Assembly: GCA_001824435.1 (NCBI GenBank)
Contig: MHXH01000016.1
Location: 14,970-78,969 of the forward strand
Reading direction: 5' to 3'
DNA length: 64,000 bases
From: Parcubacteria group bacterium RIFCSPLOWO2_01_FULL_48_18
GTDB taxonomy: Bacteria; Patescibacteriota; Minisyncoccia; UBA6257; WO2-01-48-18
This document shows, piece after piece, positions 9,210-55,613 of this stretch. The first letter of the stretch is position 1. Every line of letters starts with the position of its first letter. The notes under the pieces are model-generated. The model made no database searches and was not told the DNA's origin. It saw nothing but the letters and a program-made list of their open reading frames with translations. Made by a program: the position numbers and the translations under genes.

Positions 9210-9220
9210 GCTTTAACCAC

Positions 9221-9571
9221 ATGCTTTCCCGCCAACAAGTAACCCAAAAACTTTCCACGCTCCCTCCTGACATTAGAGAATGGCTTATTTCTCCTGAAGT
9301 TGCTTTTTACATACGGAAGTTGGGGCAGGACCTTGAACTGGTCCGCGTCCAGACCGAACGGATTTCCGAGCTGATTTTAAGCGTCGCAGTCGGCGCAATT
9401 ACAGCCACAGAATGCCTAAACACTCTACAGGAAGATCTGGCCTTGAAACCGGAGACCGCCAGAAGGGTGGCAGAGCGGATTTACACCGAAATATTCAGCC
9501 GCATACAAGGCTCGTTGTTAAAACTCGGGGTTGATATACGAGGACTCGTGCGCCCGCAAGGGCCGTCGTAG
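9221..9571 (+). CDS. Hypothetical protein (116 aa)
   Basis: ORF in operon context with no recognisable motifs. Confidence 0.35.
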   Translation: MLSRQQVTQKLSTLPPDIREWLISPEVAFYIRKLGQDLELVRVQTERISELILSVAVGAITATECLNTLQEDLALKPETARRVAERIYTEIFSRIQGSLLKLGVDIRGLVRPQGPS

Positions 9572-9644
9572 AAATTAACTTTACGCTCGGATCTGCCCTC
9601 AACCTAGCCCCCGGGTGCGGGCTGCTCCGGCGTTATTAAATTGC

Positions 9645-9980
9645 ATGGACGCCCCCCCAAACGAAAAACCCAAAGACGAACCTGCGCCGTTCATTATAGG
9701 CGTTGGTTTTGCCGCTCCGGCGGCTCCGGCAACAGGAGAAGACTCTTCTGAAAAAAAACCAGAGGGGATCCCCACGGCCGAACCACAGGATAAATCCTTC
9801 GACGCGGCTACTTCGACTACGCTCAGTACGGGCCAGGATAAACCCCACATGCTTTTTACAACCGGAGCTGAAAAAATTAAGCCGATCTCCGAAAGCAGGC
9901 GGCCGTCAATGGGCCCGGTAGTTCTGGAAAAACAGAAGAAGGAAACGCCGAAAGCGAGAATAGAACTTCCGGAAGAGTAG
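9645..9980 (+). CDS. Hypothetical Pro/Ala-rich small protein with an uncertain start
   Basis: Low-complexity ORF. The track starts it at 9615, and MDAPP at 9645 is a plausible alternative. Confidence 0.3.
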   Translation: MDAPPNEKPKDEPAPFIIGVGFAAPAAPATGEDSSEKKPEGIPTAEPQDKSFDAATSTTLSTGQDKPHMLFTTGAEKIKPISESRRPSMGPVVLEKQKKETPKARIELPEE

Positions 9981-10030
9981 ACCCTAGACCTTAGGCTTTA
10001 GGCTCTAGGCTTTAGGTTTTAGGTTTTAGA
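9978..10030. repeat. Tandem heptamer array (TTAGGCT/TTAGGTT ...), left flank of four-helix-bundle cassette 1
   Basis: Direct reading: tagaccctagaccttaggctttaggctctaggctttaggttttaggttttag. Confidence 0.7.
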
Positions 10031-10086
10031 CGTTGCGTTAGACGCGGAAAAATTAGGATGTAATTTCTAAACCTCTAAAAGCCGAC

Positions 10087-10442
10087 ATGCACACTTATAA
10101 AGACCTTATCGTCTGGCAGAAGTCTATAGAACTGGTTACAAAAATATACCTCTTGACAGAAGGCTTTCCAAAAGAAGAAATCTATGGCCTAACGTCGCAA
10201 ATGAGACGCGCTGCCGTATCCATAGCTTCGAATATTGCTGAAGGCAGGCTACGAGGACATCCAAAAGAATTTAAGCAGTTTTTATTAACTGCTTATGTGG
10301 CTCTGGCGGCGAACTAGAAACACAGATTGAAATCGCCAAACGCCTACCCACCACAAGACGCCTCGATTACACAAGAACAGACGCCCTGCTTAGCGAGGTG
10401 ATGAAAATGTTAAATGCGATGATCTCAAGGACTAGCGCCTAA
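10087..10442 (+). pseudogene. Four-helix-bundle protein (23S rRNA intervening-sequence protein / Avd-like family), frameshifted
   Basis: The N-terminal 76 aa (YKDLIVWQKSIELV...GLTSQMRRAAVSIASNIAEG) match the family. The conserved C-terminal part (GSGGELETQIEIAKRL...MLNAMISRT) continues in another frame after a 2-nt indel near 10297-10300. Confidence 0.65.
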
Positions 10443-45640: not shown

Positions 45641-48028
45641 ATGGATCGATTTTCTGCAAAGTTTCATGTAGCTCTTTTGTGCGGCGGCCCATCGCTTGAG
45701 CGGGGCATTTCCCTCAATTCTGCCCGGTCGGTAGTGGACCATCTCGAATCCGAAGAAATCTCCGTACAGCCAATCTATTTTGATTTCAGGAAAAATCCCT
45801 ACAAAATTTCAAGGGCGCAATTGTATTGCAACACTCCCTCTGATTTTGACTTCAAGTTGAACCGAACGGCAACGCCGTTCACGGAACGATCGCTTGTCCG
45901 TTTTCTCAGGGCGGTAGATATTATTTTCCCCGTTATGCACGGACCATTCGGCGAGGACGGCGAGATCCAGTCTTTTCTTGAACGGTATAACCTCCCGTTC
46001 GTCGGCTCAGGGGCAAAAACATGTAAAAAGGCCTTTGATAAATTTACTGCAAATGAATATATAAAACAGCACGGCTTTTTTACTTTGCCATCGGTTGTGC
46101 TCAAGATATATCATCACGATCATAAATACATTCTCGAAAGATTTTTCAAAGAGTATCGAGTCAAGCGTGCCGTGGTAAAACCCGCAAGCGGAGGATCGAG
46201 CATCGGGGTGTTTTCGGTATCCAGCGCTCGCGAAGCGCTGGAAAAATCGAACCTTCTTTTCTCGAGACGAATGGACACCCGTGTCGTAGTTGAACCCTTT
46301 GCCAAGGGGGCAGAGTTTACGACTGTCATGCTTGAAAATCGTTTCGGGCTGCCGGTTGCGTTGCCGCCCACCGAGATCGAAACCGACTATGCCGAGCATC
46401 AAATTTTCGATTTCAGGAAAAAATACCTGCCGACTCGCCAAGTAACATGGCATTGCCCCCCCAGATTTGATAATTGGACGATCGAAAAAATTCAAGCGCA
46501 GGCAGAACAACTGTTTGCGTTATTTCATATGCGCGATTTTGGCAGATTTGACGGTTGGGTACTGCCCGGCGGAGATATCTGGTTTTGCGATCTTAACCCG
46601 ATAAGCGGCATGGAGCAAAATAGTTTTCTGTTTCAGCAGGCATCGCGCATCGGCATGACGCACGGCGATGTGCTGCGTCACATTGTTAGAAGGGCATGCG
46701 AGAGATACGGCATAGATTTTCCAGAGATCGTCCTGAAGCCCCCCGCGCGCCGCAAAAAGGTAAATATCATAATGGGCGGCGACAATTCCGAAAGGCAGGT
46801 TTCTTTGATAAGCGGTACGAATGTATGGCTTAAGCTCCGCCGCTCCAAGCGGTACGAACCGCAGCCATATCTGTTGGATACCAGAGGTTATGTATGGCGG
46901 CTGCCCTATCATCTGTGTTTGAATCATACTGTTGAAGAAATTGCCGAGGATTGCGAGGGGTATCAATATACGAAGAACAGACTTGCTGTATTCGAAGAGC
47001 GCGCTCGGCTGCGATTGGGATTCTTGAAACCAAAAGACAAAGAAGAATTTTTTGAACCGAGCAAATTAGCGTTCAAGAAGTTCATTAAAACATCGGACCT
47101 CATTTTTATCGCCCTTCACGGAGGCGACGGAGAGAATGGAAATTTGCAGAAATTGCTTGGCGCGCAGGGAGTAAAGTTCAACGGTCCGTACGAAGAAGCG
47201 TCCCGACTTTGCATGGACAAGTGGGACACTGCAAGCTTTATCAACAACGCGGGTATCGCGGGCGTCAGTGCTATTCCAGGCAAAACGATTGAAACCCGTG
47301 CCGTGCTCCGGTTCGATGACCGGGGCATCAGATTATTCTGGCGAAAAACCAGGAAGGAGATTGGGGCAAAGACGTTGATCGTAAAGCCTCGCGCCGACGG
47401 TTGCACCACCGGAGTTGTTCATCTCCGCTCGCCGAACGACCTTAAAAAATACGCAGAGCTGCTCTTTAAAAAAGCGCCCGTTGTGCCGCGGCAGACATTT
47501 AGGGGGCAGAGGGATATTATAGAAATGCCTCCGGCCTTGCCCCGTGACCTGCTCTTCGAGAAATTTATTGAAACCGACGCATTGCGCGTTAAAGCCGGTA
47601 CGTTAAAATATCAGCGTCGCACGGGGTGGATTGAAATTACTGTCGGCATCGTTGAGATAGACGGCGAACTCAAGGTCCTTAGTCCAAGCATTACCGTGGT
47701 TGAGAGCGAAGTGTTAACCGTAGAGGAAAAGTTTCAGGGCGGCACCGGCGTCAACATTACGCCGCCGCCGCCGAGCATCATGAAACCGGCAGTACTCAAG
47801 AGGGTGAAGGACCTGATTGAGGAAGTCGCGCGCAAGATCGGCATCCGCGGTTATTCGCGGATTGACGCGTTTGCCAATGTTGACAGCGGCGACGCGTTGA
47901 TTATCGAGGTAAACACGCTGCCCGGCCTTACCCCTTCAACCGTTTTTTTTCACCAGGCGTTGGCAGAATCACCTCCGCTTTTTCCCGCGGAACTCCTGGA
48001 GATTTTGATCCGGAATAAAAGGTATTAA
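45641..48028 (+). CDS. ddl: Tandem-domain D-alanine--D-alanine ligase family protein (two ATP-grasp Ddl-like modules fused)
   Basis: The Ddl N-terminal signature occurs twice (HVALLCGGPSLERGISLNSA and KVNIIMGGDNSERQVSLISG), each followed by an ATP-grasp region. 795 aa. Confidence 0.6.
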   Translation: MDRFSAKFHVALLCGGPSLERGISLNSARSVVDHLESEEISVQPIYFDFRKNPYKISRAQLYCNTPSDFDFKLNRTATPFTERSLVRFLRAVDIIFPVMHGPFGEDGEIQSFLERYNLPFVGSGAKTCKKAFDKFTANEYIKQHGFFTLPSVVLKIYHHDHKYILERFFKEYRVKRAVVKPASGGSSIGVFSVSSAREALEKSNLLFSRRMDTRVVVEPFAKGAEFTTVMLENRFGLPVALPPTEIETDYAEHQIFDFRKKYLPTRQVTWHCPPRFDNWTIEKIQAQAEQLFALFHMRDFGRFDGWVLPGGDIWFCDLNPISGMEQNSFLFQQASRIGMTHGDVLRHIVRRACERYGIDFPEIVLKPPARRKKVNIIMGGDNSERQVSLISGTNVWLKLRRSKRYEPQPYLLDTRGYVWRLPYHLCLNHTVEEIAEDCEGYQYTKNRLAVFEERARLRLGFLKPKDKEEFFEPSKLAFKKFIKTSDLIFIALHGGDGENGNLQKLLGAQGVKFNGPYEEASRLCMDKWDTASFINNAGIAGVSAIPGKTIETRAVLRFDDRGIRLFWRKTRKEIGAKTLIVKPRADGCTTGVVHLRSPNDLKKYAELLFKKAPVVPRQTFRGQRDIIEMPPALPRDLLFEKFIETDALRVKAGTLKYQRRTGWIEITVGIVEIDGELKVLSPSITVVESEVLTVEEKFQGGTGVNITPPPPSIMKPAVLKRVKDLIEEVARKIGIRGYSRIDAFANVDSGDALIIEVNTLPGLTPSTVFFHQALAESPPLFPAELLEILIRNKRY

Positions 48029-48105: not shown

Positions 48106-48933
48106 TCATCGAACCGCGTCTTCAAATAAAGTTATTAGGAATTTTGTATTTACACCCGCCTTTCCGTTGCCGATGCGCAAGCTATCAATTTTTATTACGG
48201 GCATAATTTCCTTATTCGTTGCCGCAATAAATGCCTCGGAGGCGCCCCTAAGTTCCTGCAAACGGATGTTTCTCTCTTGTATAACGAAGTATTTTCGCGC
48301 TAAAGAAAGCACGAATTTTCTGGTTATTCCCAAAAGAATATCCCGCCTCGGCGTGATAAGGACATTGCGCCTGAATATAAAAAAATTGCTCGTCGTGCAT
48401 TCCAGCGCTTTGCCGTTTGACACATATAGGGTTTCGAGCGCCCCCCTGCGCAGTCTACGAATATGATCGTGAAACGCACTGAGATAGTTAATGGTTTTCG
48501 CCCGAGCAAATTCCCGTTGATGCTCTTTCGTAATCAGTTTAATTCCCTTTGTATGCGCCGACTGCGGGTAGGTATGTGGTTGTTCCAGAAGGATACAAAT
48601 ATCGGAAGAAAAACTCTTTGCGTCTTTGTCAAAATTTTTGGCCAAGACTAGGATACGAATATCCGCCTCTCCTATTTTATTCTTCTCAAGCAAAAACCCT
48701 ATTATTCTTTCAATTCTTTGCGCGGATATGGGCAACGACAGGTAGAGCGCCCGCGCGGAGTTTTTGAGCCGCGCGAGGTGTTCCGCAAGCCGGAAAGGCA
48801 CACCTCCATACATTCGTATAAATTCAAAAACACCGTATCCCCGCTGAAGGCCTAGGTTGCGAACATTAATATTTGCGTTTTGTACGGAAACAATTTTTCC
48901 GTTTACAAAACACCAACGAGGCGATGCCATCAT
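48106..48933 (-). CDS. Class IV aminotransferase (D-amino-acid / branched-chain family)
   Basis: Fold-type IV PLP enzyme pattern with a conserved Lys region. Divergently adjacent to the Ddl fusion gene. Confidence 0.65.
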   Translation of the reverse strand: MMASPRWCFVNGKIVSVQNANINVRNLGLQRGYGVFEFIRMYGGVPFRLAEHLARLKNSARALYLSLPISAQRIERIIGFLLEKNKIGEADIRILVLAKNFDKDAKSFSSDICILLEQPHTYPQSAHTKGIKLITKEHQREFARAKTINYLSAFHDHIRRLRRGALETLYVSNGKALECTTSNFFIFRRNVLITPRRDILLGITRKFVLSLARKYFVIQERNIRLQELRGASEAFIAATNKEIMPVIKIDSLRIGNGKAGVNTKFLITLFEDAVR

Positions 48934-49205
48934 AATCGTGCCGCTATGCCGGCTCCTGCCATTATATCATTTTTTTACCCCGCACCAGAAAGCCCCAGAC
49001 TCCTGTTTGGGGATGAAGGTGCTAAGCCCGAAGGGCTTTCGGTGCGGGGTTTCGCTCCGCGCCGAATCGAAAGAAGCCGCCGACTCCTGTCGGCGGAGCT
49101 TCACTACCTAACACAAATCGACTAGAGCATAGGGGGGTAGCAGCTTCTCTGCGATTATCCCCAATGGAGTTGATCCTTTCTTCGACACCCGGTATCATAA
49201 ATGTA

Positions 49206-49259
49206 ATGGAACGGTTTGCAACTGCAACTACCACGACCACGACCCGCACGTACCGCTGA
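49206..49259 (+). CDS. thrL: Thr-rich leader peptide (MERFATATTTTTTRTYR), candidate thr attenuator
   Basis: A 17-codon ORF with 8 Thr codons, ending 68 nt before the thrA start. Confidence 0.5.
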   Translation: MERFATATTTTTTRTYR

Positions 49260-49326
49260 GGCGATGTTGTAGTTAAAAGCGTAAAAATTGGAATCATACA
49301 TCGGCCTCAGGGGGGTCGATTTTCTT

Positions 49327-51765
49327 ATGAAGATCAAACGGGTTTTAAAATTCGGCGGCACATCGTTGGGATCTCCAGATGCCATCAGAAGAGCCAGCGC
49401 CATTATCAGGGAAGCGGCGCAGCGGGGGGCAATAGCCGTTGTTGTTTCTGCGTTTTCCGGCGTTACTGATCAGCTTTTGTGCTGCGCCAGATGGGCAGAG
49501 AAACAGAATCCTGAATTGAGGCAAGAACTGCGTCGGCTACGCATGCGTCATTTTGAAACGGCTCGAAAACTTTTTCCGGCAAAGCTTCGCGAGGAAGCTA
49601 GGGCGCCCTTGGAGCAATTATTTAAAGAATTGGAGGGGCGTCTTATGCGCATTGAAAAAGGAAAGGCTGCGTCGGTTCAAGACCTCGATGCTGTCGCAGG
49701 CATTGGAGAACGCCTATCCGCCCCCATCATTGCCGCTTACCTAAACAGTTTTGACACCAAACGTCATCCGTTCAGGTCATACACTATAGACGCCAGGGGT
49801 TTAATTAAGACCGACAGCTGCTTCGGAAGGGCCAGTGTTGATTTTGTTAAGACCGACCGCAATATTAAAGAGTTTTTCCATGGCCGTCCCGGAGGTAAAA
49901 ATATGGTTCCCGTGCTAACCGGCTTTATCGGGTCAACCGATGGGGGCGAAACCACAACGCTCGGTCGAGGCGGGTCTGATTACACTGCCGCAATCGTCGC
50001 TGCGGCCATCGATGCGAAACTCGTCGAAATATGGACCGATGTTGATGGGGTAATGAGTGCCGACCCCAATCTTGTTACGCACGCATATCTCTTGCCGCAA
50101 CTGACCTATTCCGAAGCGATTGAAATGGCATATTTCGGCGCTAAGGTTATCCATCCGGCAACCATGCTTCCGGCAATTAAAAAGAAAATTCCTATTCTCA
50201 TCAAAAATACATTTAACCCATCCTCGTCAGGCACTCTTATTTCCCATGGCGCATCCAGCGATAACAATCAAACCGTAAAAGGCATTACCGCAATAGATGA
50301 TGTTGCCATTATAAATATAGGTGGCGTGAGTTTGGCGGGTATACCCGGTTCAGCCGCCAGAGTTTTTAAGGCGACTGCCGCCGCGGGCGCCAATGTTGTT
50401 TTAATATCGCAGGCGTCGTCAGAGCATACAATCTGCATTGCGATAAAAAGAGAGAGCCTTGCCCCGGCCCTCTATTCTCTCCGAAAAGAATTTAGGGAAG
50501 CGATAAAACAAAAACAGGTAACGCTTCACACAATCAAGGATCAATCCATTGTTGCCGTCGTGGGAGACGGCATGCGGGGAACGCCTGGCGTTGCCGGCAA
50601 GTTATTTAACGCCCTTGCTGAACACGGGATAAACATTTCCGCGATTGCCCAAGGGGGCTCTGAACGAAATATTTCTCTTGTAGTAAAATCGTCCGACAAA
50701 GCAGCTGCGCTTAACGTCATCCATAATGCGTTTTTACGGGTTCCGCCAAAACACATCTTTCTAGCAGGCACCGGCAATATAGGGGGCAAGCTTCTAGAGC
50801 AGATGAAGGCCCATCCTCATCTCAGGGTATGCGGTCTTATTAACACCGATTTTATGCTTTCTGACTCGAGGGGCATTCAACTTGACCGGTGGAGCATTTT
50901 ATTGGGTCGCGGCCAGCAAGCTAACGTACAAACATGGCTCTCGCGGGCACGAACCCTCAATCTGTCGAATAAAATTTTTGTTGATTGCACTGCCAGCAAA
51001 AAAATCGCTCGGCAGTACTGCAACATTGCCCGGGCCGGTTTTCATATTGTAACGCCGAACAAGATATTCAATGTGTTACCATTTGACGAATACCAAAAGC
51101 TGCGCCGCATTTTGGCGCAAAACAACAAGCGCTTCCTTTATGAAACAACGGTTGGCGCGGCTATGCCGATCATCTCTACGCTAAGAGATCTTGTTGCTAG
51201 CGGGGATGGCATTACCAGGATCGAGGGTATTTTTTCCGGAACGCTCAGTTATATCCTAAGCGCTTACGACGGAAAAAGACCGTTTAGCTCGGTGGTGCTG
51301 GAAGCGAAGGAAAAAGGCTATACCGAGCCCGATCCTAGAACTGACCTTTCAGGAGAAGATGTGGGAAGAAAACTGCTTATTCTGGCCCGCGAAATAGGCC
51401 TGCCGCTTGAAATGGAAGACATAAAAGTCCAAAGTTTGGTGCCTCCCCCCCTGCGAAAAGTAAAATCGGCAGACTCGTTTTTGGCGCGTTTGAAAGACTA
51501 CGACAAACAGTTTGAAAAACTATGCAAACGCGCTAGAGTAAGAGGACGGGCGCTGCGATACGTGGCAACGCTTCAAGGAAGGCGGGCGTCGGTATCGCTT
51601 AAAGAAATTCCATTGACCGATCCTTTGTCCTCTACTCGTGGCGCTGATAATATCTTTGTTTTTTATACCAAGCGCTACAACGAACGGCCGTTGGTGGTTC
51701 AAGGGCCCGGAGCCGGCGCCGCAGTCACCGCTGGAGGGGTGTTGACGGACATTCTTAAAATCTAG
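49327..51765 (+). CDS. thrA: Bifunctional aspartokinase / homoserine dehydrogenase
   Basis: An aspartokinase N-terminus (KFGGTSLGS), ACT domains and a homoserine dehydrogenase C-terminus. The start is at MKIKRV. Confidence 0.85.
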   Translation: MKIKRVLKFGGTSLGSPDAIRRASAIIREAAQRGAIAVVVSAFSGVTDQLLCCARWAEKQNPELRQELRRLRMRHFETARKLFPAKLREEARAPLEQLFKELEGRLMRIEKGKAASVQDLDAVAGIGERLSAPIIAAYLNSFDTKRHPFRSYTIDARGLIKTDSCFGRASVDFVKTDRNIKEFFHGRPGGKNMVPVLTGFIGSTDGGETTTLGRGGSDYTAAIVAAAIDAKLVEIWTDVDGVMSADPNLVTHAYLLPQLTYSEAIEMAYFGAKVIHPATMLPAIKKKIPILIKNTFNPSSSGTLISHGASSDNNQTVKGITAIDDVAIINIGGVSLAGIPGSAARVFKATAAAGANVVLISQASSEHTICIAIKRESLAPALYSLRKEFREAIKQKQVTLHTIKDQSIVAVVGDGMRGTPGVAGKLFNALAEHGINISAIAQGGSERNISLVVKSSDKAAALNVIHNAFLRVPPKHIFLAGTGNIGGKLLEQMKAHPHLRVCGLINTDFMLSDSRGIQLDRWSILLGRGQQANVQTWLSRARTLNLSNKIFVDCTASKKIARQYCNIARAGFHIVTPNKIFNVLPFDEYQKLRRILAQNNKRFLYETTVGAAMPIISTLRDLVASGDGITRIEGIFSGTLSYILSAYDGKRPFSSVVLEAKEKGYTEPDPRTDLSGEDVGRKLLILAREIGLPLEMEDIKVQSLVPPPLRKVKSADSFLARLKDYDKQFEKLCKRARVRGRALRYVATLQGRRASVSLKEIPLTDPLSSTRGADNIFVFYTKRYNERPLVVQGPGAGAAVTAGGVLTDILKI

Positions 51766-51800: not shown

Positions 51801-51837
51801 AAAAAAAGTGGCGCTCGCAAACAGCGTGTAGCGCCAC
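51801..51837. terminator. Bidirectional terminator hairpin GTGGCGC-N16-GCGCCAC with an A-tract on the 5' side
   Basis: Direct reading. The GAAATTTGA tandem repeats at 51766..51800 lie just before it. Confidence 0.55.
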
Positions 51838-51862
51838 AGATATGACAGTGCCGTCGTGATAG

Positions 51863-52060
51863 TTATACTAGCCTTACCACTCGTTCCACGAAGGGATCAA
51901 GGAAGCCCGATACATTCCCGCCAGCGGAACGGATGCGCCCATCAACGATTTCAACCCGGATAGCCAAACCTAAACCAGAGTAGAAATCAGGGTTAAGGCC
52001 AAGCATGCTCATGACTTCATTTTGGCGGTCAAGCTTGATGATTGCGACAAGGTTATTCAC
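51863..52060 (-). CDS. Hypothetical small protein (65 aa)
   Basis: ORF with its own terminator downstream. Confidence 0.3.
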   Translation of the reverse strand: MNNLVAIIKLDRQNEVMSMLGLNPDFYSGLGLAIRVEIVDGRIRSAGGNVSGFLDPFVERVVRLV

Positions 52061-53225: not shown

Positions 53226-53353
53226 TAATCTGATGAGGTCGCCAGCGGTAATTCTATACTTGTACTACGAAACAGCATTGCGGATCTCCGATTTTTCGAG
53301 TATCTCAATAATATTCTAACATTCTCAAGAATGTCAGAATATTGTGGCAGGAC

Positions 53354-53641
53354 ATGACGGACAAAGTCAAAAATCAAAAACAAATGGAACGGCACTTTAA
53401 GGGCGTAGCAAATCACCGCCGCATTGAGATTCTTATGGTTATCGCCGAACACGAAGGAGTTACGCTGGACAACCTATCGCGCATCGTTTCGTGCAATTTT
53501 AAAACGCTTTCCGAACATACGCGCCGGCTCGTCCAAGCCGGTTTGATAAATAAGAAATACCACGGACGGTTTGTCCGCCATACACTCTCGCCATATGGCA
53601 GAATGTTCTATAAGTTTATCGTGACGCTCCGACATTCTTGA
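53354..53641 (+). CDS. ArsR-family HTH transcriptional regulator
   Basis: A winged-helix core (LDNLSRIVSCNFKTLSEHTRRLVQAGLI). Imperfect palindromes ACATTCT..AGAATGT lie at 53310..53343 and 53631..53659. Confidence 0.6.
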   Translation: MTDKVKNQKQMERHFKGVANHRRIEILMVIAEHEGVTLDNLSRIVSCNFKTLSEHTRRLVQAGLINKKYHGRFVRHTLSPYGRMFYKFIVTLRHS

Positions 53642-53775
53642 GAATATTAGAATGTTATGTGGTAGGGATAATGGAAATGTGAAGTCGTAAATTCCCGCGA
53701 CATTTCGCTGAGTGGGATAAATATAAGAGGTGCCACGGGGCGTAGGAATGGAATGAGGGTGTCGCCGTTCACATA

Positions 53776-54285
53776 ATGCGTACCAACACAAAACAAAGCA
53801 TCACATTAATCGGCATGCCGGGGTCGGGTAAGTCGACTATCGGGCGGCTCGTTGCGCGGCGGCTGAATTGGAATTTCGTCGACCTCGATGACGTCATTAA
53901 AGAAAAAGATGGAAAGAGCCACGCGGAGATTCTTGAATTCGACGGAGAGAAAACGCTCCTTGCGCGTGAAGAGGCGCATACGCTTGGACTTGTTTTTTCA
54001 AACCTTGTATTCTCGCCGGGCGGGAGCATTATCTATTCGCCGAAGGCGATGGAAAAACTCCGCAGTGAAACGCGCGTCATCTATCTTGCGCTTCCGCTTC
54101 CTGAAATAAAAAAACGCCTCGGCAAAAAAATCAACGACCGCGGCATTGTGGGGCTTGCCAAAAAAGGGATTGAAGGATTATTTAAAGAACGCGCGCCGCA
54201 GTACAAAGCGGCTGCCCACCATACTGTTGATTGTTTGAACCTGCGTAAACAGGAAATTGTAAAAAGAATTCTTCAAGACGCATGA
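53776..54285 (+). CDS. aroK: Shikimate kinase
   Basis: Walker A GMPGSGKST, ~169 aa. Confidence 0.8.
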   Translation: MRTNTKQSITLIGMPGSGKSTIGRLVARRLNWNFVDLDDVIKEKDGKSHAEILEFDGEKTLLAREEAHTLGLVFSNLVFSPGGSIIYSPKAMEKLRSETRVIYLALPLPEIKKRLGKKINDRGIVGLAKKGIEGLFKERAPQYKAAAHHTVDCLNLRKQEIVKRILQDA

Positions 54286-55613
54286 AATACTACAGTACCA
54301 ACAAACGCGCTCCGCTTGTTACTTTTAAAGAAGCGCTTCTCCGTGGTCTTGCGCCGGACGGAGGCCTGTACATGCCGCAGTCGTTCCCGAAATTTCCTAT
54401 TTCTTTTTGGAATGATATCGAAAAAACAAGCTCTGGTCGCGTTGCATTTGATCTTTTGCGTCATTTTATCACAGACATACCGGCGCCAGCATTTAAAAAA
54501 ATCATCCGTGATGCATTCAATTTTCCGGCACCGCTTGTGCGACTTAACGACAATGTATATGTGCTGGAACTCTTTCACGGCCCAACGCTTTCTTTCAAAG
54601 ATTTCGGCGCGCGATTTATGGCGCGTACAATGGGATATTACCTCCGTTCCCAGAAAAAGAAATTGTATATTTTTGTGGCTACGTCCGGAGATACCGGAAG
54701 CGCGGTTGCGCACGGTTTTTTTAATATTCCCGGAGTACGCGTGTTCATTCTGTATCCTTCGGGTCGCGTGAGCAGAAACCAGGAGAAACAACTTACGACA
54801 TTCGGAAAAAATATCACGGCGTTTGAAATTAAGGGGAATTTTGACGACTGTCAGCAGCTCGCAAAACAGCTTTTGAACGATCCCGATATTCGAAAAAGGG
54901 CTCTCGTTTCATCCGCCAATTCAATAAACATCGGCCGTCTACTGCCGCAGATGTTTTATTATCTCTTCGGTTGGGCGCAGCTTCAAAGCCGTAGAACTGT
55001 CGAGCTATCGAGCTGTCAAGTTCCTATTTTTGTGGTCCCGAGCGGTAATTTCGGGAATATATGCGCCGGGCTTTTTGCAAAAAAACTTGGGCTTCCGGCC
55101 AAAAAATTCATCGCGGCGGTAAATATAAACAGCGGCGTGCCGGAATATTTAAAGACTGGCCGCCTTCCCGTGAAAAAAACGAGGCGCACGCTTTCAAGCG
55201 CAATGGACGTGGGACTCCCAAGCAATTTCGCGCGGATCCTTGATTTATATGGCCATAACCGGGAGTCTTTGCAAAAAGATTTAGACGCGGCCATAGTGAC
55301 AGATCGTGAAACAAAAAAGACCATCCACGAAACATACGAGAAATATGGTTATATCGCCGATCCCCATACTGCGGTAGGAATTGCCGCAGGGCTTCGGTAT
55401 CGCGAATCGGGCCGGGGAAACGATCCGATAATTGTCCTTTCAACCGCCCATCCCGCAAAATTTCCGGAAGCCGTCGAAAAACAAATTAAAGAAAAGCTTA
55501 CTGTGCCCGGCTCGCTCCGCAGAATAATCAGAAGAAAGAACAGGGGCGTCCTCGCAAAGAACAACCCTGAAGATCTAAAAAGACTTATCGGAAAATACAT
55601 AAAACATCCATGA
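54282..55613 (+). CDS. thrC: Threonine synthase
   Basis: PLP-binding FKDFGARFMA region; overlaps the aroK stop. Confidence 0.85.
   Translation: MKYYSTNKRAPLVTFKEALLRGLAPDGGLYMPQSFPKFPISFWNDIEKTSSGRVAFDLLRHFITDIPAPAFKKIIRDAFNFPAPLVRLNDNVYVLELFHGPTLSFKDFGARFMARTMGYYLRSQKKKLYIFVATSGDTGSAVAHGFFNIPGVRVFILYPSGRVSRNQEKQLTTFGKNITAFEIKGNFDDCQQLAKQLLNDPDIRKRALVSSANSINIGRLLPQMFYYLFGWAQLQSRRTVELSSCQVPIFVVPSGNFGNICAGLFAKKLGLPAKKFIAAVNINSGVPEYLKTGRLPVKKTRRTLSSAMDVGLPSNFARILDLYGHNRESLQKDLDAAIVTDRETKKTIHETYEKYGYIADPHTAVGIAAGLRYRESGRGNDPIIVLSTAHPAKFPEAVEKQIKEKLTVPGSLRRIIRRKNRGVLAKNNPEDLKRLIGKYIKHP

Follow-up and report, generated by a model that had tools for sequence, protein, structure and literature searches.

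The 64-kb window analyzed here, a stretch of a contig of Parcubacteria group bacterium RIFCSPLOWO2_01_FULL_48_18, contains a short threonine-rich leader open reading frame (ORF) upstream of thrA, together with RNA hairpins that may control the expression of this gene as a transcription attenuator. The leader is located within a 393-nt divergent intergenic region bordered on its upstream side by a class IV aminotransferase gene (48106-48933, minus strand). Since the aminotransferase gene is divergent, the hairpin before thrA is not its terminator, and the minus strand of the intergenic region contains no amino-acid-run ORF that could serve the aminotransferase. The thrA product contains AA_kinase, ACT, and Homoserine_dh domains (Pfam) and matches NCBIfam NF006959 with 913 bits, above the cut-off of 726, which agrees with the bifunctional aspartokinase/homoserine dehydrogenase named in an earlier sequence-only reading of the locus. 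The leader ORF begins with the ATG at 49206 and ends with the TGA at 49257-49259 on the plus strand. Its length of 17 codons and its eight threonine (Thr) codons are as the earlier reading gave them: ACT at 49221 and 49227, ACC at 49230, 49236, and 49242, and ACG at 49233, 49239, 49248. The ORF is positioned just before thrA, as had been claimed, but the gap between its stop codon and the thrA ATG at 49327 counts 67 nt (49260-49326) and not 68 nt. At least six ACN codons per eight-codon stretch occur once in the six frames of the whole 64 kb, at 49218-49253, compared with an expectation of 0.025 such clusters per 64 kb calculated from Markov-1 random sequences. A longer in-frame ORF starting at 49164 (31 residues) was set aside in favor of the 17-codon ORF, because the similar N-terminal extensions in two related loci, L001 and L085, are explained as translated conserved promoter sequence.

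The nearest relatives of the window ThrA are about 50 proteins from Patescibacteria (52-58% identity), followed by those from Ignavibacteria and Bacteroidota at about 48%. The close relatives of the window UvrB are also solely from Patescibacteria, at about 70%. Therefore, the assignment to the phylum does not depend on thrA alone, and it agrees with the earlier description of the genome as resembling those of the candidate phyla radiation (CPR). The comparison of an alignment of 50 ThrA sequences with genome contigs provided mostly Bacteroidota and Proteobacteria and a single close Patescibacteria locus, and most of the loci of relatives were found by a metagenome scan and exact-protein look-ups. 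The resulting sample comprises 15 distinct Patescibacteria thrA loci, including the window, with ThrA proteins that are 53-58% identical. The Thr-run ORF, whose conservation in related genomes the sequence-only reading had left to be checked, is present in twelve of the fifteen; one locus (L090) has a run of isoleucine (Ile) codons instead, and two have no leader. The earlier reading had considered such a leader unexpected in a CPR-like genome, which holds at the level of the phylum but not within the thrA-bearing clade of Patescibacteria, where the leader is the rule. The promoter spacing and the terminator/antiterminator layout of L090 are the same as those of the Thr-run loci. Each of the 13 leader-bearing loci has a GC hairpin at the corresponding position, with four or more T in a row after it. 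In the relatives, unlike in the window, the hairpin and T-run are a further 30-115 nt upstream of thrA.

Promoters were scored by a sigma70 consensus scan with a shuffle control. The putative promoter of the window leader reads TTGATC-17-TATCAT-AAATGTA-ATG, and 1% of the shuffled sequences scored equally well. A sigma70-like −35/−10 pair is positioned directly before the leader ATG in 13 of 13 loci, with a spacer of 16-17 nt and mostly with a TG extension. The distance from the end of the −10 box to the leader ATG is 6-10 nt, with a mode of 7, and L084 is the only one of these loci with a tetramer resembling a Shine-Dalgarno (SD) sequence in between. From this promoter spacing, the 5' end of the transcript is expected at the leader AUG or no more than about 2 nt away from it. 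Given the short distance between the −10 box and the ATG and the lack of an SD motif, translation of the leader ORF probably takes place on a leaderless transcript. SD motifs are essentially absent before the 27 long ORFs of the window, where the mean energy of the duplex with the anti-SD sequence is −0.9 kcal/mol versus −3.2 kcal/mol at control positions. A strong, TATAAT-like −10 box 6-8 nt before the ATG was found at 6 of 27 other genes, compared with one and none at control distances. These observations suggest that leaderless mRNAs are common, and seemingly a normal mode, in this genome.

The RNA downstream of the Thr codons is predicted to fold in two ways. The terminator-like hairpin, which in the DNA reads ATCGGCCTC-AGG-GGGGTCGAT (49300-49320) and is followed by TTTCTT, has a stem of nine pairs, predicted at −10.9 kcal/mol; it is the feature that had been noticed as a G-rich stem followed by ATTTTCTT. 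The antiterminator, formed by pairing of 49256-49266 with 49299-49310 at −17.2 kcal/mol, ties up eight of the nine nucleotides of the terminator 5' arm. A repeat finder identified the arms 49253-49262 and 49304-49313 (10 nt, 90% complementary), which confirms the complementarity of CTGAGGC (49256-49262) and GCCTCAG (49304-49310) reported previously. Both folds are predicted to form and to compete for the terminator 5' arm; a lack of mutually exclusive structures was what the sequence-only reading had named beforehand as refuting its proposal. The antiterminator 5' arm lies inside the modeled footprint of a ribosome at the stop codon. In constrained folds of the window leader, a ribosome placed on the stop codon results in the terminator, and one at Thr codon 10 results in the antiterminator.

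The geometry is shared by the related loci. Constrained folding with a ribosome at the stop codon produced the terminator in all 13 of them. Co-transcriptional folding was modeled by truncating the transcript just before the terminator 3' arm, with the ribosome stalled in the middle of the run. In each of the 13 loci, the terminator 5' arm then paired with a segment that lies no further than about 16 nt upstream or 12 nt downstream of the stop codon of the leader, with energies from −12.8 to −24.8 kcal/mol. The duplex between the antiterminator 5' arm (region 2) and the terminator arm of the same locus has a mean energy of −13.0 kcal/mol, compared with −9.9 kcal/mol for swapped arms, and 3 of 20,000 permutations reached the value of the own arms. 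The outer helix of 7 bp is 92.9% paired, and four of its seven pairs are changed on both sides, for example C-G 6 / U-A 6. When all 18 pairs are counted, 75.9% are paired, and shifting the 3' partners by 1-3 columns lowers this value to 27-58%. A MAFFT alignment of the whole leaders was unsuitable for pair counts, as it did not bring the structures into register. ACN-ACN codons have a complement in the segment that follows the stop codon (UUUUAGURGUU or GUUGUAGUU), and this 1:2 pairing exceeds shuffled controls at p≤0.02 in 8 of the 13 loci, the window not being among them. A covariance model of the antiterminator, trained on 12 sequences and used to search 399 kb of the window and loci, recovered only its training sequences and no extra copies, and it matched neither L090, L081, and L113 nor the leaders of Bacteroidota.

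Based on the predicted folds and their conservation, we propose that the element is very probably a ribosome-mediated (leader-peptide) transcription attenuator, which sets the expression of thrA according to the supply of charged tRNA-Thr. The proposal was reached by computation alone; we infer the start of transcription, the termination itself, and the response to threonine. The mutually exclusive folds, the conservation of the leader, and the covariation of the arms support the thr-operon type of attenuation put forward in the sequence-only reading. The sigma70-type promoter would start the transcript at the leader AUG or next to it, and ribosomes would translate the 17-codon ORF from this leaderless message before RNA polymerase has finished the leader. 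When Thr-tRNA is ample, the ribosome would reach the UGA and cover CUGAGGCGAUG (49256-49266), so that 49300-49320 would form the terminator hairpin and transcription would end in the U-tract just before thrA. When Thr-tRNA is scarce, the ribosome would stall within the Thr run, at 49221-49244, and leave 49256-49266 free to pair with 49299-49310. The 5' arm of the terminator would thus be sequestered, and the polymerase would read into thrA.

Several results weigh against attenuation. A ribosome modeled at codon 13, the last of the run, returns the minimum free energy (MFE) structure to the terminator. Without constraints, the full-length leader of the window takes the antiterminator form as its MFE structure (−35.5 kcal/mol); therefore, an untranslated transcript is not predicted to terminate by thermodynamics alone. 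The U-tract of the window is interrupted (UUUUCUU). The 1:2 duplex of the window has an energy of −14.3 kcal/mol, compared with −12.5 ± 3.3 kcal/mol for shuffled sequences, 29% of which equal it. Full-length equilibrium folds switch upon stalling in 6 of 13 loci, and the agreement of all 13 requires the truncated model. For L082, L084, and L086, controls with shuffled arms do as well as the antiterminators themselves, and both pair counts given above lean toward the structure, since the alignment was trimmed to the predicted helix ends. L081 and L113 do not contain the element.

The same hairpins might instead gate the access of ribosomes to the thrA start codon, in which case the polymerase would not terminate. 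The window has no gap between the U-tract and the thrA ATG, and its GGGGGG (49310-49315), the sole SD-like sequence, is mostly buried in the terminator stem; its duplex with the anti-SD sequence (−10.9 kcal/mol) is the second-strongest of the 27 genes tested. However, the hairpins of the relatives are too far upstream of thrA to mask the start codon, the GC hairpin with its T-run in every leader-bearing locus is a signature of intrinsic termination, and SD motifs are generally unused in this genome. A purely translational switch is therefore improbable, although transcriptional and translational effects could coexist in the window. We regard as still less probable, by some way, that the ORF arose by chance and that the hairpin is constitutive or part of a non-coding RNA, without any sensing of amino acids. 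The uniqueness of the Thr cluster, the recurrence of Thr-run ORFs at a constant position in 12 of the 15 loci despite otherwise dissimilar peptides, the covariation of antiterminator and terminator arms, the fixed relation of the stop codon to the antiterminator arm, and the precise placement of a promoter before each leader ATG are difficult to reconcile with chance. They outweigh the computational nature of the support for translation, the chance-level 1:2 pairing in the window, and a fold z-score that reaches only −2.07 for 49155-49335.

Aspartokinase genes are controlled by riboswitches in other phyla, and the ACC/ACU Thr codons could in principle serve as specifier triplets of a T-box or another riboswitch that binds threonine or tRNA-Thr directly, with the ORF being incidental. 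The T-box also reads the supply of aminoacyl-tRNA through the choice between terminator and antiterminator upstream of amino-acid genes. It differs in binding tRNA directly, in its length of about 200 nt or more, and in its conserved T-box sequence, whereas the element in the window has a codon run predicted to be translated. A search of 48850-49450 against Rfam, on both strands and at E≤10, gave no match to any family, including the T-box, and 12 related leaders had no match at the gathering score. If the promoter is called correctly, the leader is only about 120 nt long, too short for a T-box, and the conserved feature is a run of codons that share their reading frame with an ATG and a stop codon. 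Direct sensing by RNA is thus very unlikely. There is equally little to recommend a functional micro-protein, for which the hairpin would simply be the terminator. Some leader peptides do act in trans, such as peTrpL of Sinorhizobium meliloti (PMC7298713). Beyond the Thr run, the peptides studied here have only the C-terminal GEF/EEF/GAF in common, and this similarity follows from the RNA motif GAGUUUUAGURGUU, whose conservation fixes the encoded amino acids. The motif keeps its place while the position of the stop codon varies from locus to locus: the ORFs of L110 and L111 end at a TAG directly before the conserved CCGAGG, and those of L084 and L086 continue past this point to a later TAG. 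The positions of the elements of the proposed attenuator, the related leader peptides, and the compensating arms are listed in the table.

Table. Features of the thrA leader in the window, and leader peptides and compensating antiterminator arms of related thrA loci (L numbers)
Feature	Position	Strand	Basis
−35-like hexamer TTGATC, putative leader promoter	49170..49175	+	consensus scan
−10-like hexamer TATCAT, 17-nt spacer, ends 7 nt before leader ATG	49193..49198	+	consensus scan
Leader ORF, peptide MERFATATTTTTTRTYR, + TGA	49206..49259	+	sequence; equivalent Thr-run ORFs in 11 relatives
Regulatory Thr codons, 8 ACN in 10, proposed stalling site (region 1)	49221..49250	+	cluster unique in 64 kb
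Predicted antiterminator 5' arm CUGAGGCGAUG (region 2), overlaps leader stop codon	49256..49266	+	folds, repeat finder
GUUGUAGUU, complementary to Thr-codon segment AACUGCAAC (49220-49228), candidate 1:2 anti-antiterminator pairing	49266..49274	+	pre-terminator transcript fold
Predicted antiterminator 3' arm CAUCGGCCUCAG = terminator 5' arm + loop (region 3)	49299..49310	+	truncated-transcript fold
Terminator-like hairpin AUCGGCCUC-AGG-GGGGUCGAU (49300-49320) + U-tract UUUCUU (49321-49326), abuts thrA ATG	49300..49326	+	
thrA, bifunctional aspartate kinase/homoserine dehydrogenase I, regulated gene	49327..51765	+	Pfam, NCBIfam, relatives
Gene starts with −10 box 6-8 nt before ATG	4734, 5591	+	
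Gene starts with −10 box 6-8 nt before ATG	30868, 32220, 34219, 36963	−	
L001 leader peptide MIFFALTTTTATIQANTGEF			
L082 leader peptide MKLVFAIITTTTTRFPAGEF			
L083 leader peptide METQSLTIVTGTTTTTTRL			
L084 leader peptide MNKVIFTTTTTTTSLQPRS			
L085 leader peptide MIKFIFTTTTFTTRLIAEEF			
L086 leader peptide MILRIVFTTTTTTTTSIKPRL			
L088 leader peptide MKIIAATITTTTTSSNFAGAF			
L091 leader peptide MKFFTTTTTTITTQRFADGY			
L100 leader peptide MRFSLTTTTATTTTQSVVGEF			
L110 leader peptide MNSRVVFTTTTTTTSS			
L111 leader peptide MNKVVFTTTTTTTSP			
L090 Ile-run leader MTKRILTNDIIIAISR	2392-2492 (L090)		upstream of thrA homologue 53% identical
L001 compensating arms CACUGGGG:CCCCAGUG			
L091 compensating arms GCUGAUGGC:GCCAUCAGC			
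L100 compensating arms GUCGGGGA:UCCCCGGC			
L083 compensating arms GUCGAGGC:GCCUCGGC			

The proposed attenuator resembles thrL of Escherichia coli and Enterobacterales (RF00506 Thr_leader), the classical Thr/Ile-sensing attenuator, and follows the same logic as the leader-peptide attenuators of the thr, trp, and his operons. In both, a short ORF with Thr codons directly precedes the gene for aspartokinase I/homoserine dehydrogenase I, an intrinsic terminator (predicted in the window) is located between the leader and the gene, an alternative hairpin takes the 5' arm of the terminator, and the position of the ribosome would decide between the hairpins. The window leader differs from thrL in that it contains no Ile codons and has its ATG 7 nt after the −10 box without an SD motif, so that it is probably leaderless, whereas the translation of thrL is SD-led. 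The host phylum, Patescibacteria, is also different, and thrA is the sole gene behind the proposed attenuator of the window, since asd and the kinase-thrC pair stand apart from it. Membership in RF00506 was rejected, as the covariance model matched neither the window nor the 12 related leaders, and membership in the T-box family (RF00230) was rejected for the lack of a match at E≤10. No leader family was found at the gathering score in 16 related loci. The gammaproteobacterial loci L033 and L047 are also negative for RF00506, which indicates that the model is narrow.

Thr-run ORFs are also present upstream of thrA in loci of Bacteroidota and Xanthomonadales, for example MCETTTTITTTP in L030, MNNTTITTIITTGASTRRK in L056, and MSGATTTITTTITVTTRPVRPVVFA in L044. 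They share with the window leader the position before a homologous thrA and the kind of codon run, and differ in that Thr is mixed with Ile; the comparison covers the ORFs. At E≤1, the antiterminator covariance model found no Bacteroidota or other non-gammaproteobacterial locus, including L030 and L056, and the gammaproteobacterial loci, such as L044, were outside this search. The occurrence of such ORFs before thrA of both groups indicates that the strategy is widespread. The sequence-only reading had called Thr-run leaders the hallmark of thr-operon attenuation in Proteobacteria, but such leaders are not confined to that phylum, since thrA genes of Bacteroidota are preceded by Thr-run ORFs as well. 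At the time of a survey in 2010, leader peptides were known from Proteobacteria and Actinobacteria, and the survey added Firmicutes (PMC2965389). Leaderless leader-peptide ORFs have precedents: a study of Deinococcus deserti predicted 14 (PMC4007540), and in mycobacteria, polycysteine short ORFs of this kind have been described (bioRxiv 10.1101/834739). The Deinococcus and mycobacterial ORFs are similar to the window leader in being short and rich in an amino acid relevant to the downstream genes, and they begin at the 5' end of the transcript, with the AUG at or next to the start site, as the window leader probably does. Their amino acid, phylum, and RNA sequences are different, and their starts were mapped, whereas that of the window leader is deduced from promoter spacing.

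We lean toward the broader view that threonine-making Patescibacteria (CPR) use a clade-specific, leaderless form of leader-peptide attenuation, in which 70S ribosomes would load at an AUG at the 5' end and the Thr run, or the Ile run in L090, would act as the sensor. If this is true, the element represents the first class of amino-acid-sensing cis-regulatory RNA known to us in Patescibacteria, and it provides indirect evidence for the coupling of transcription and translation and for routine leaderless initiation in reduced genomes. The usual picture of CPR/Patescibacteria is one of lineages that have lost most of their biosynthesis and a good part of their regulation. A real attenuator would mean that this clade makes threonine and adjusts its synthesis to demand; the regulated unit of the relatives is the compact operon thrA-asd-(shikimate-kinase-like homoserine kinase)-thrC. 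Because attenuation of this kind depends on a ribosome that stays close behind RNA polymerase, it would also offer a testable handle on coupling and leaderless initiation in organisms for which axenic growth is not yet possible. Rfam lacks the element, and the 13 sequences could seed a model that would improve annotation, because gene finders miss such short ORFs. The mechanism is textbook, and the advance is in its distribution and variant form, not in the principle. A literature search for leader peptides or attenuation in Patescibacteria or the candidate phyla radiation found no report in the one library covered, which is no proof of novelty.

In the window, the genes thrA and asd are separated by a strong hairpin (51809-51838) with a T-run on the minus strand, and by a minus-strand ORF of 65 residues (51863-52060) without a family match. 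A small minus-strand ORF is also present at the equivalent site of L081. An ArsR/SmtB-like ORF of 99 residues (53342-53641), flanked by an inverted repeat of about 26 nt (53310-53335 / 53631-53656), is inserted so that asd is separated from the kinase-thrC pair; in the relatives, asd and this pair directly adjoin each other. Given the intervening hairpin and the two ORFs, the earlier suggestion that asd and thrC belong to units separate from thrA is plausible for the window. A gene of the shikimate-kinase family (53776-54285, plus strand) overlaps thrC (54282-55613), and the same shikimate-kinase-like gene is located between asd and thrC in the relatives. The best NCBIfam match of its product is NF040667, the Desulfovibrio-type homoserine kinase, with 130 bits, below the cut-off of 197. 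The product probably supplies the missing homoserine kinase step; the enzyme type has been described previously (PMC5764234). In L082, L083, and L084, thrA heads a compact cluster of thrA, asd, SKI-type kinase, and thrC. About 3 kb downstream of thrA, L081 contains a bAvd gene and a reverse-transcriptase gene (9210-10403), and the pair looks like a diversity-generating retroelement.

Between the aminotransferase gene and the leader promoter there is a structured element of about 130 nt (48977-49105), with the plus strand favored: the predicted energy of the plus strand is −72.1 kcal/mol with a z-score of −6.1, and the z-score of the minus strand is −4.0. The element has no match in Rfam and is absent from the relatives. 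It holds two paralogous 7-bp hairpins (48993-49012 and 49077-49096), whose stems show compensatory changes between the copies and whose hexaloops are identical; the loop sequence, CUCCUG, resembles the anti-SD sequence. Elsewhere in the window, a tRNA gene with a group I intron in the anticodon loop is located at 1655-1966 on the minus strand. The intron matches Rfam Intron_gpI at 1687-1944 with 51.8 bits; intron-aware ARAGORN assigns the gene as tRNA-Phe(GAA) with an intron of 237 nt, and default ARAGORN detects no tRNA in the window. An ORF of 795 residues (45641-48028, plus strand) contains two copies each of the N- and C-terminal domains of D-Ala-D-Ala ligase, and its product looks like a tandem-fused Ddl.

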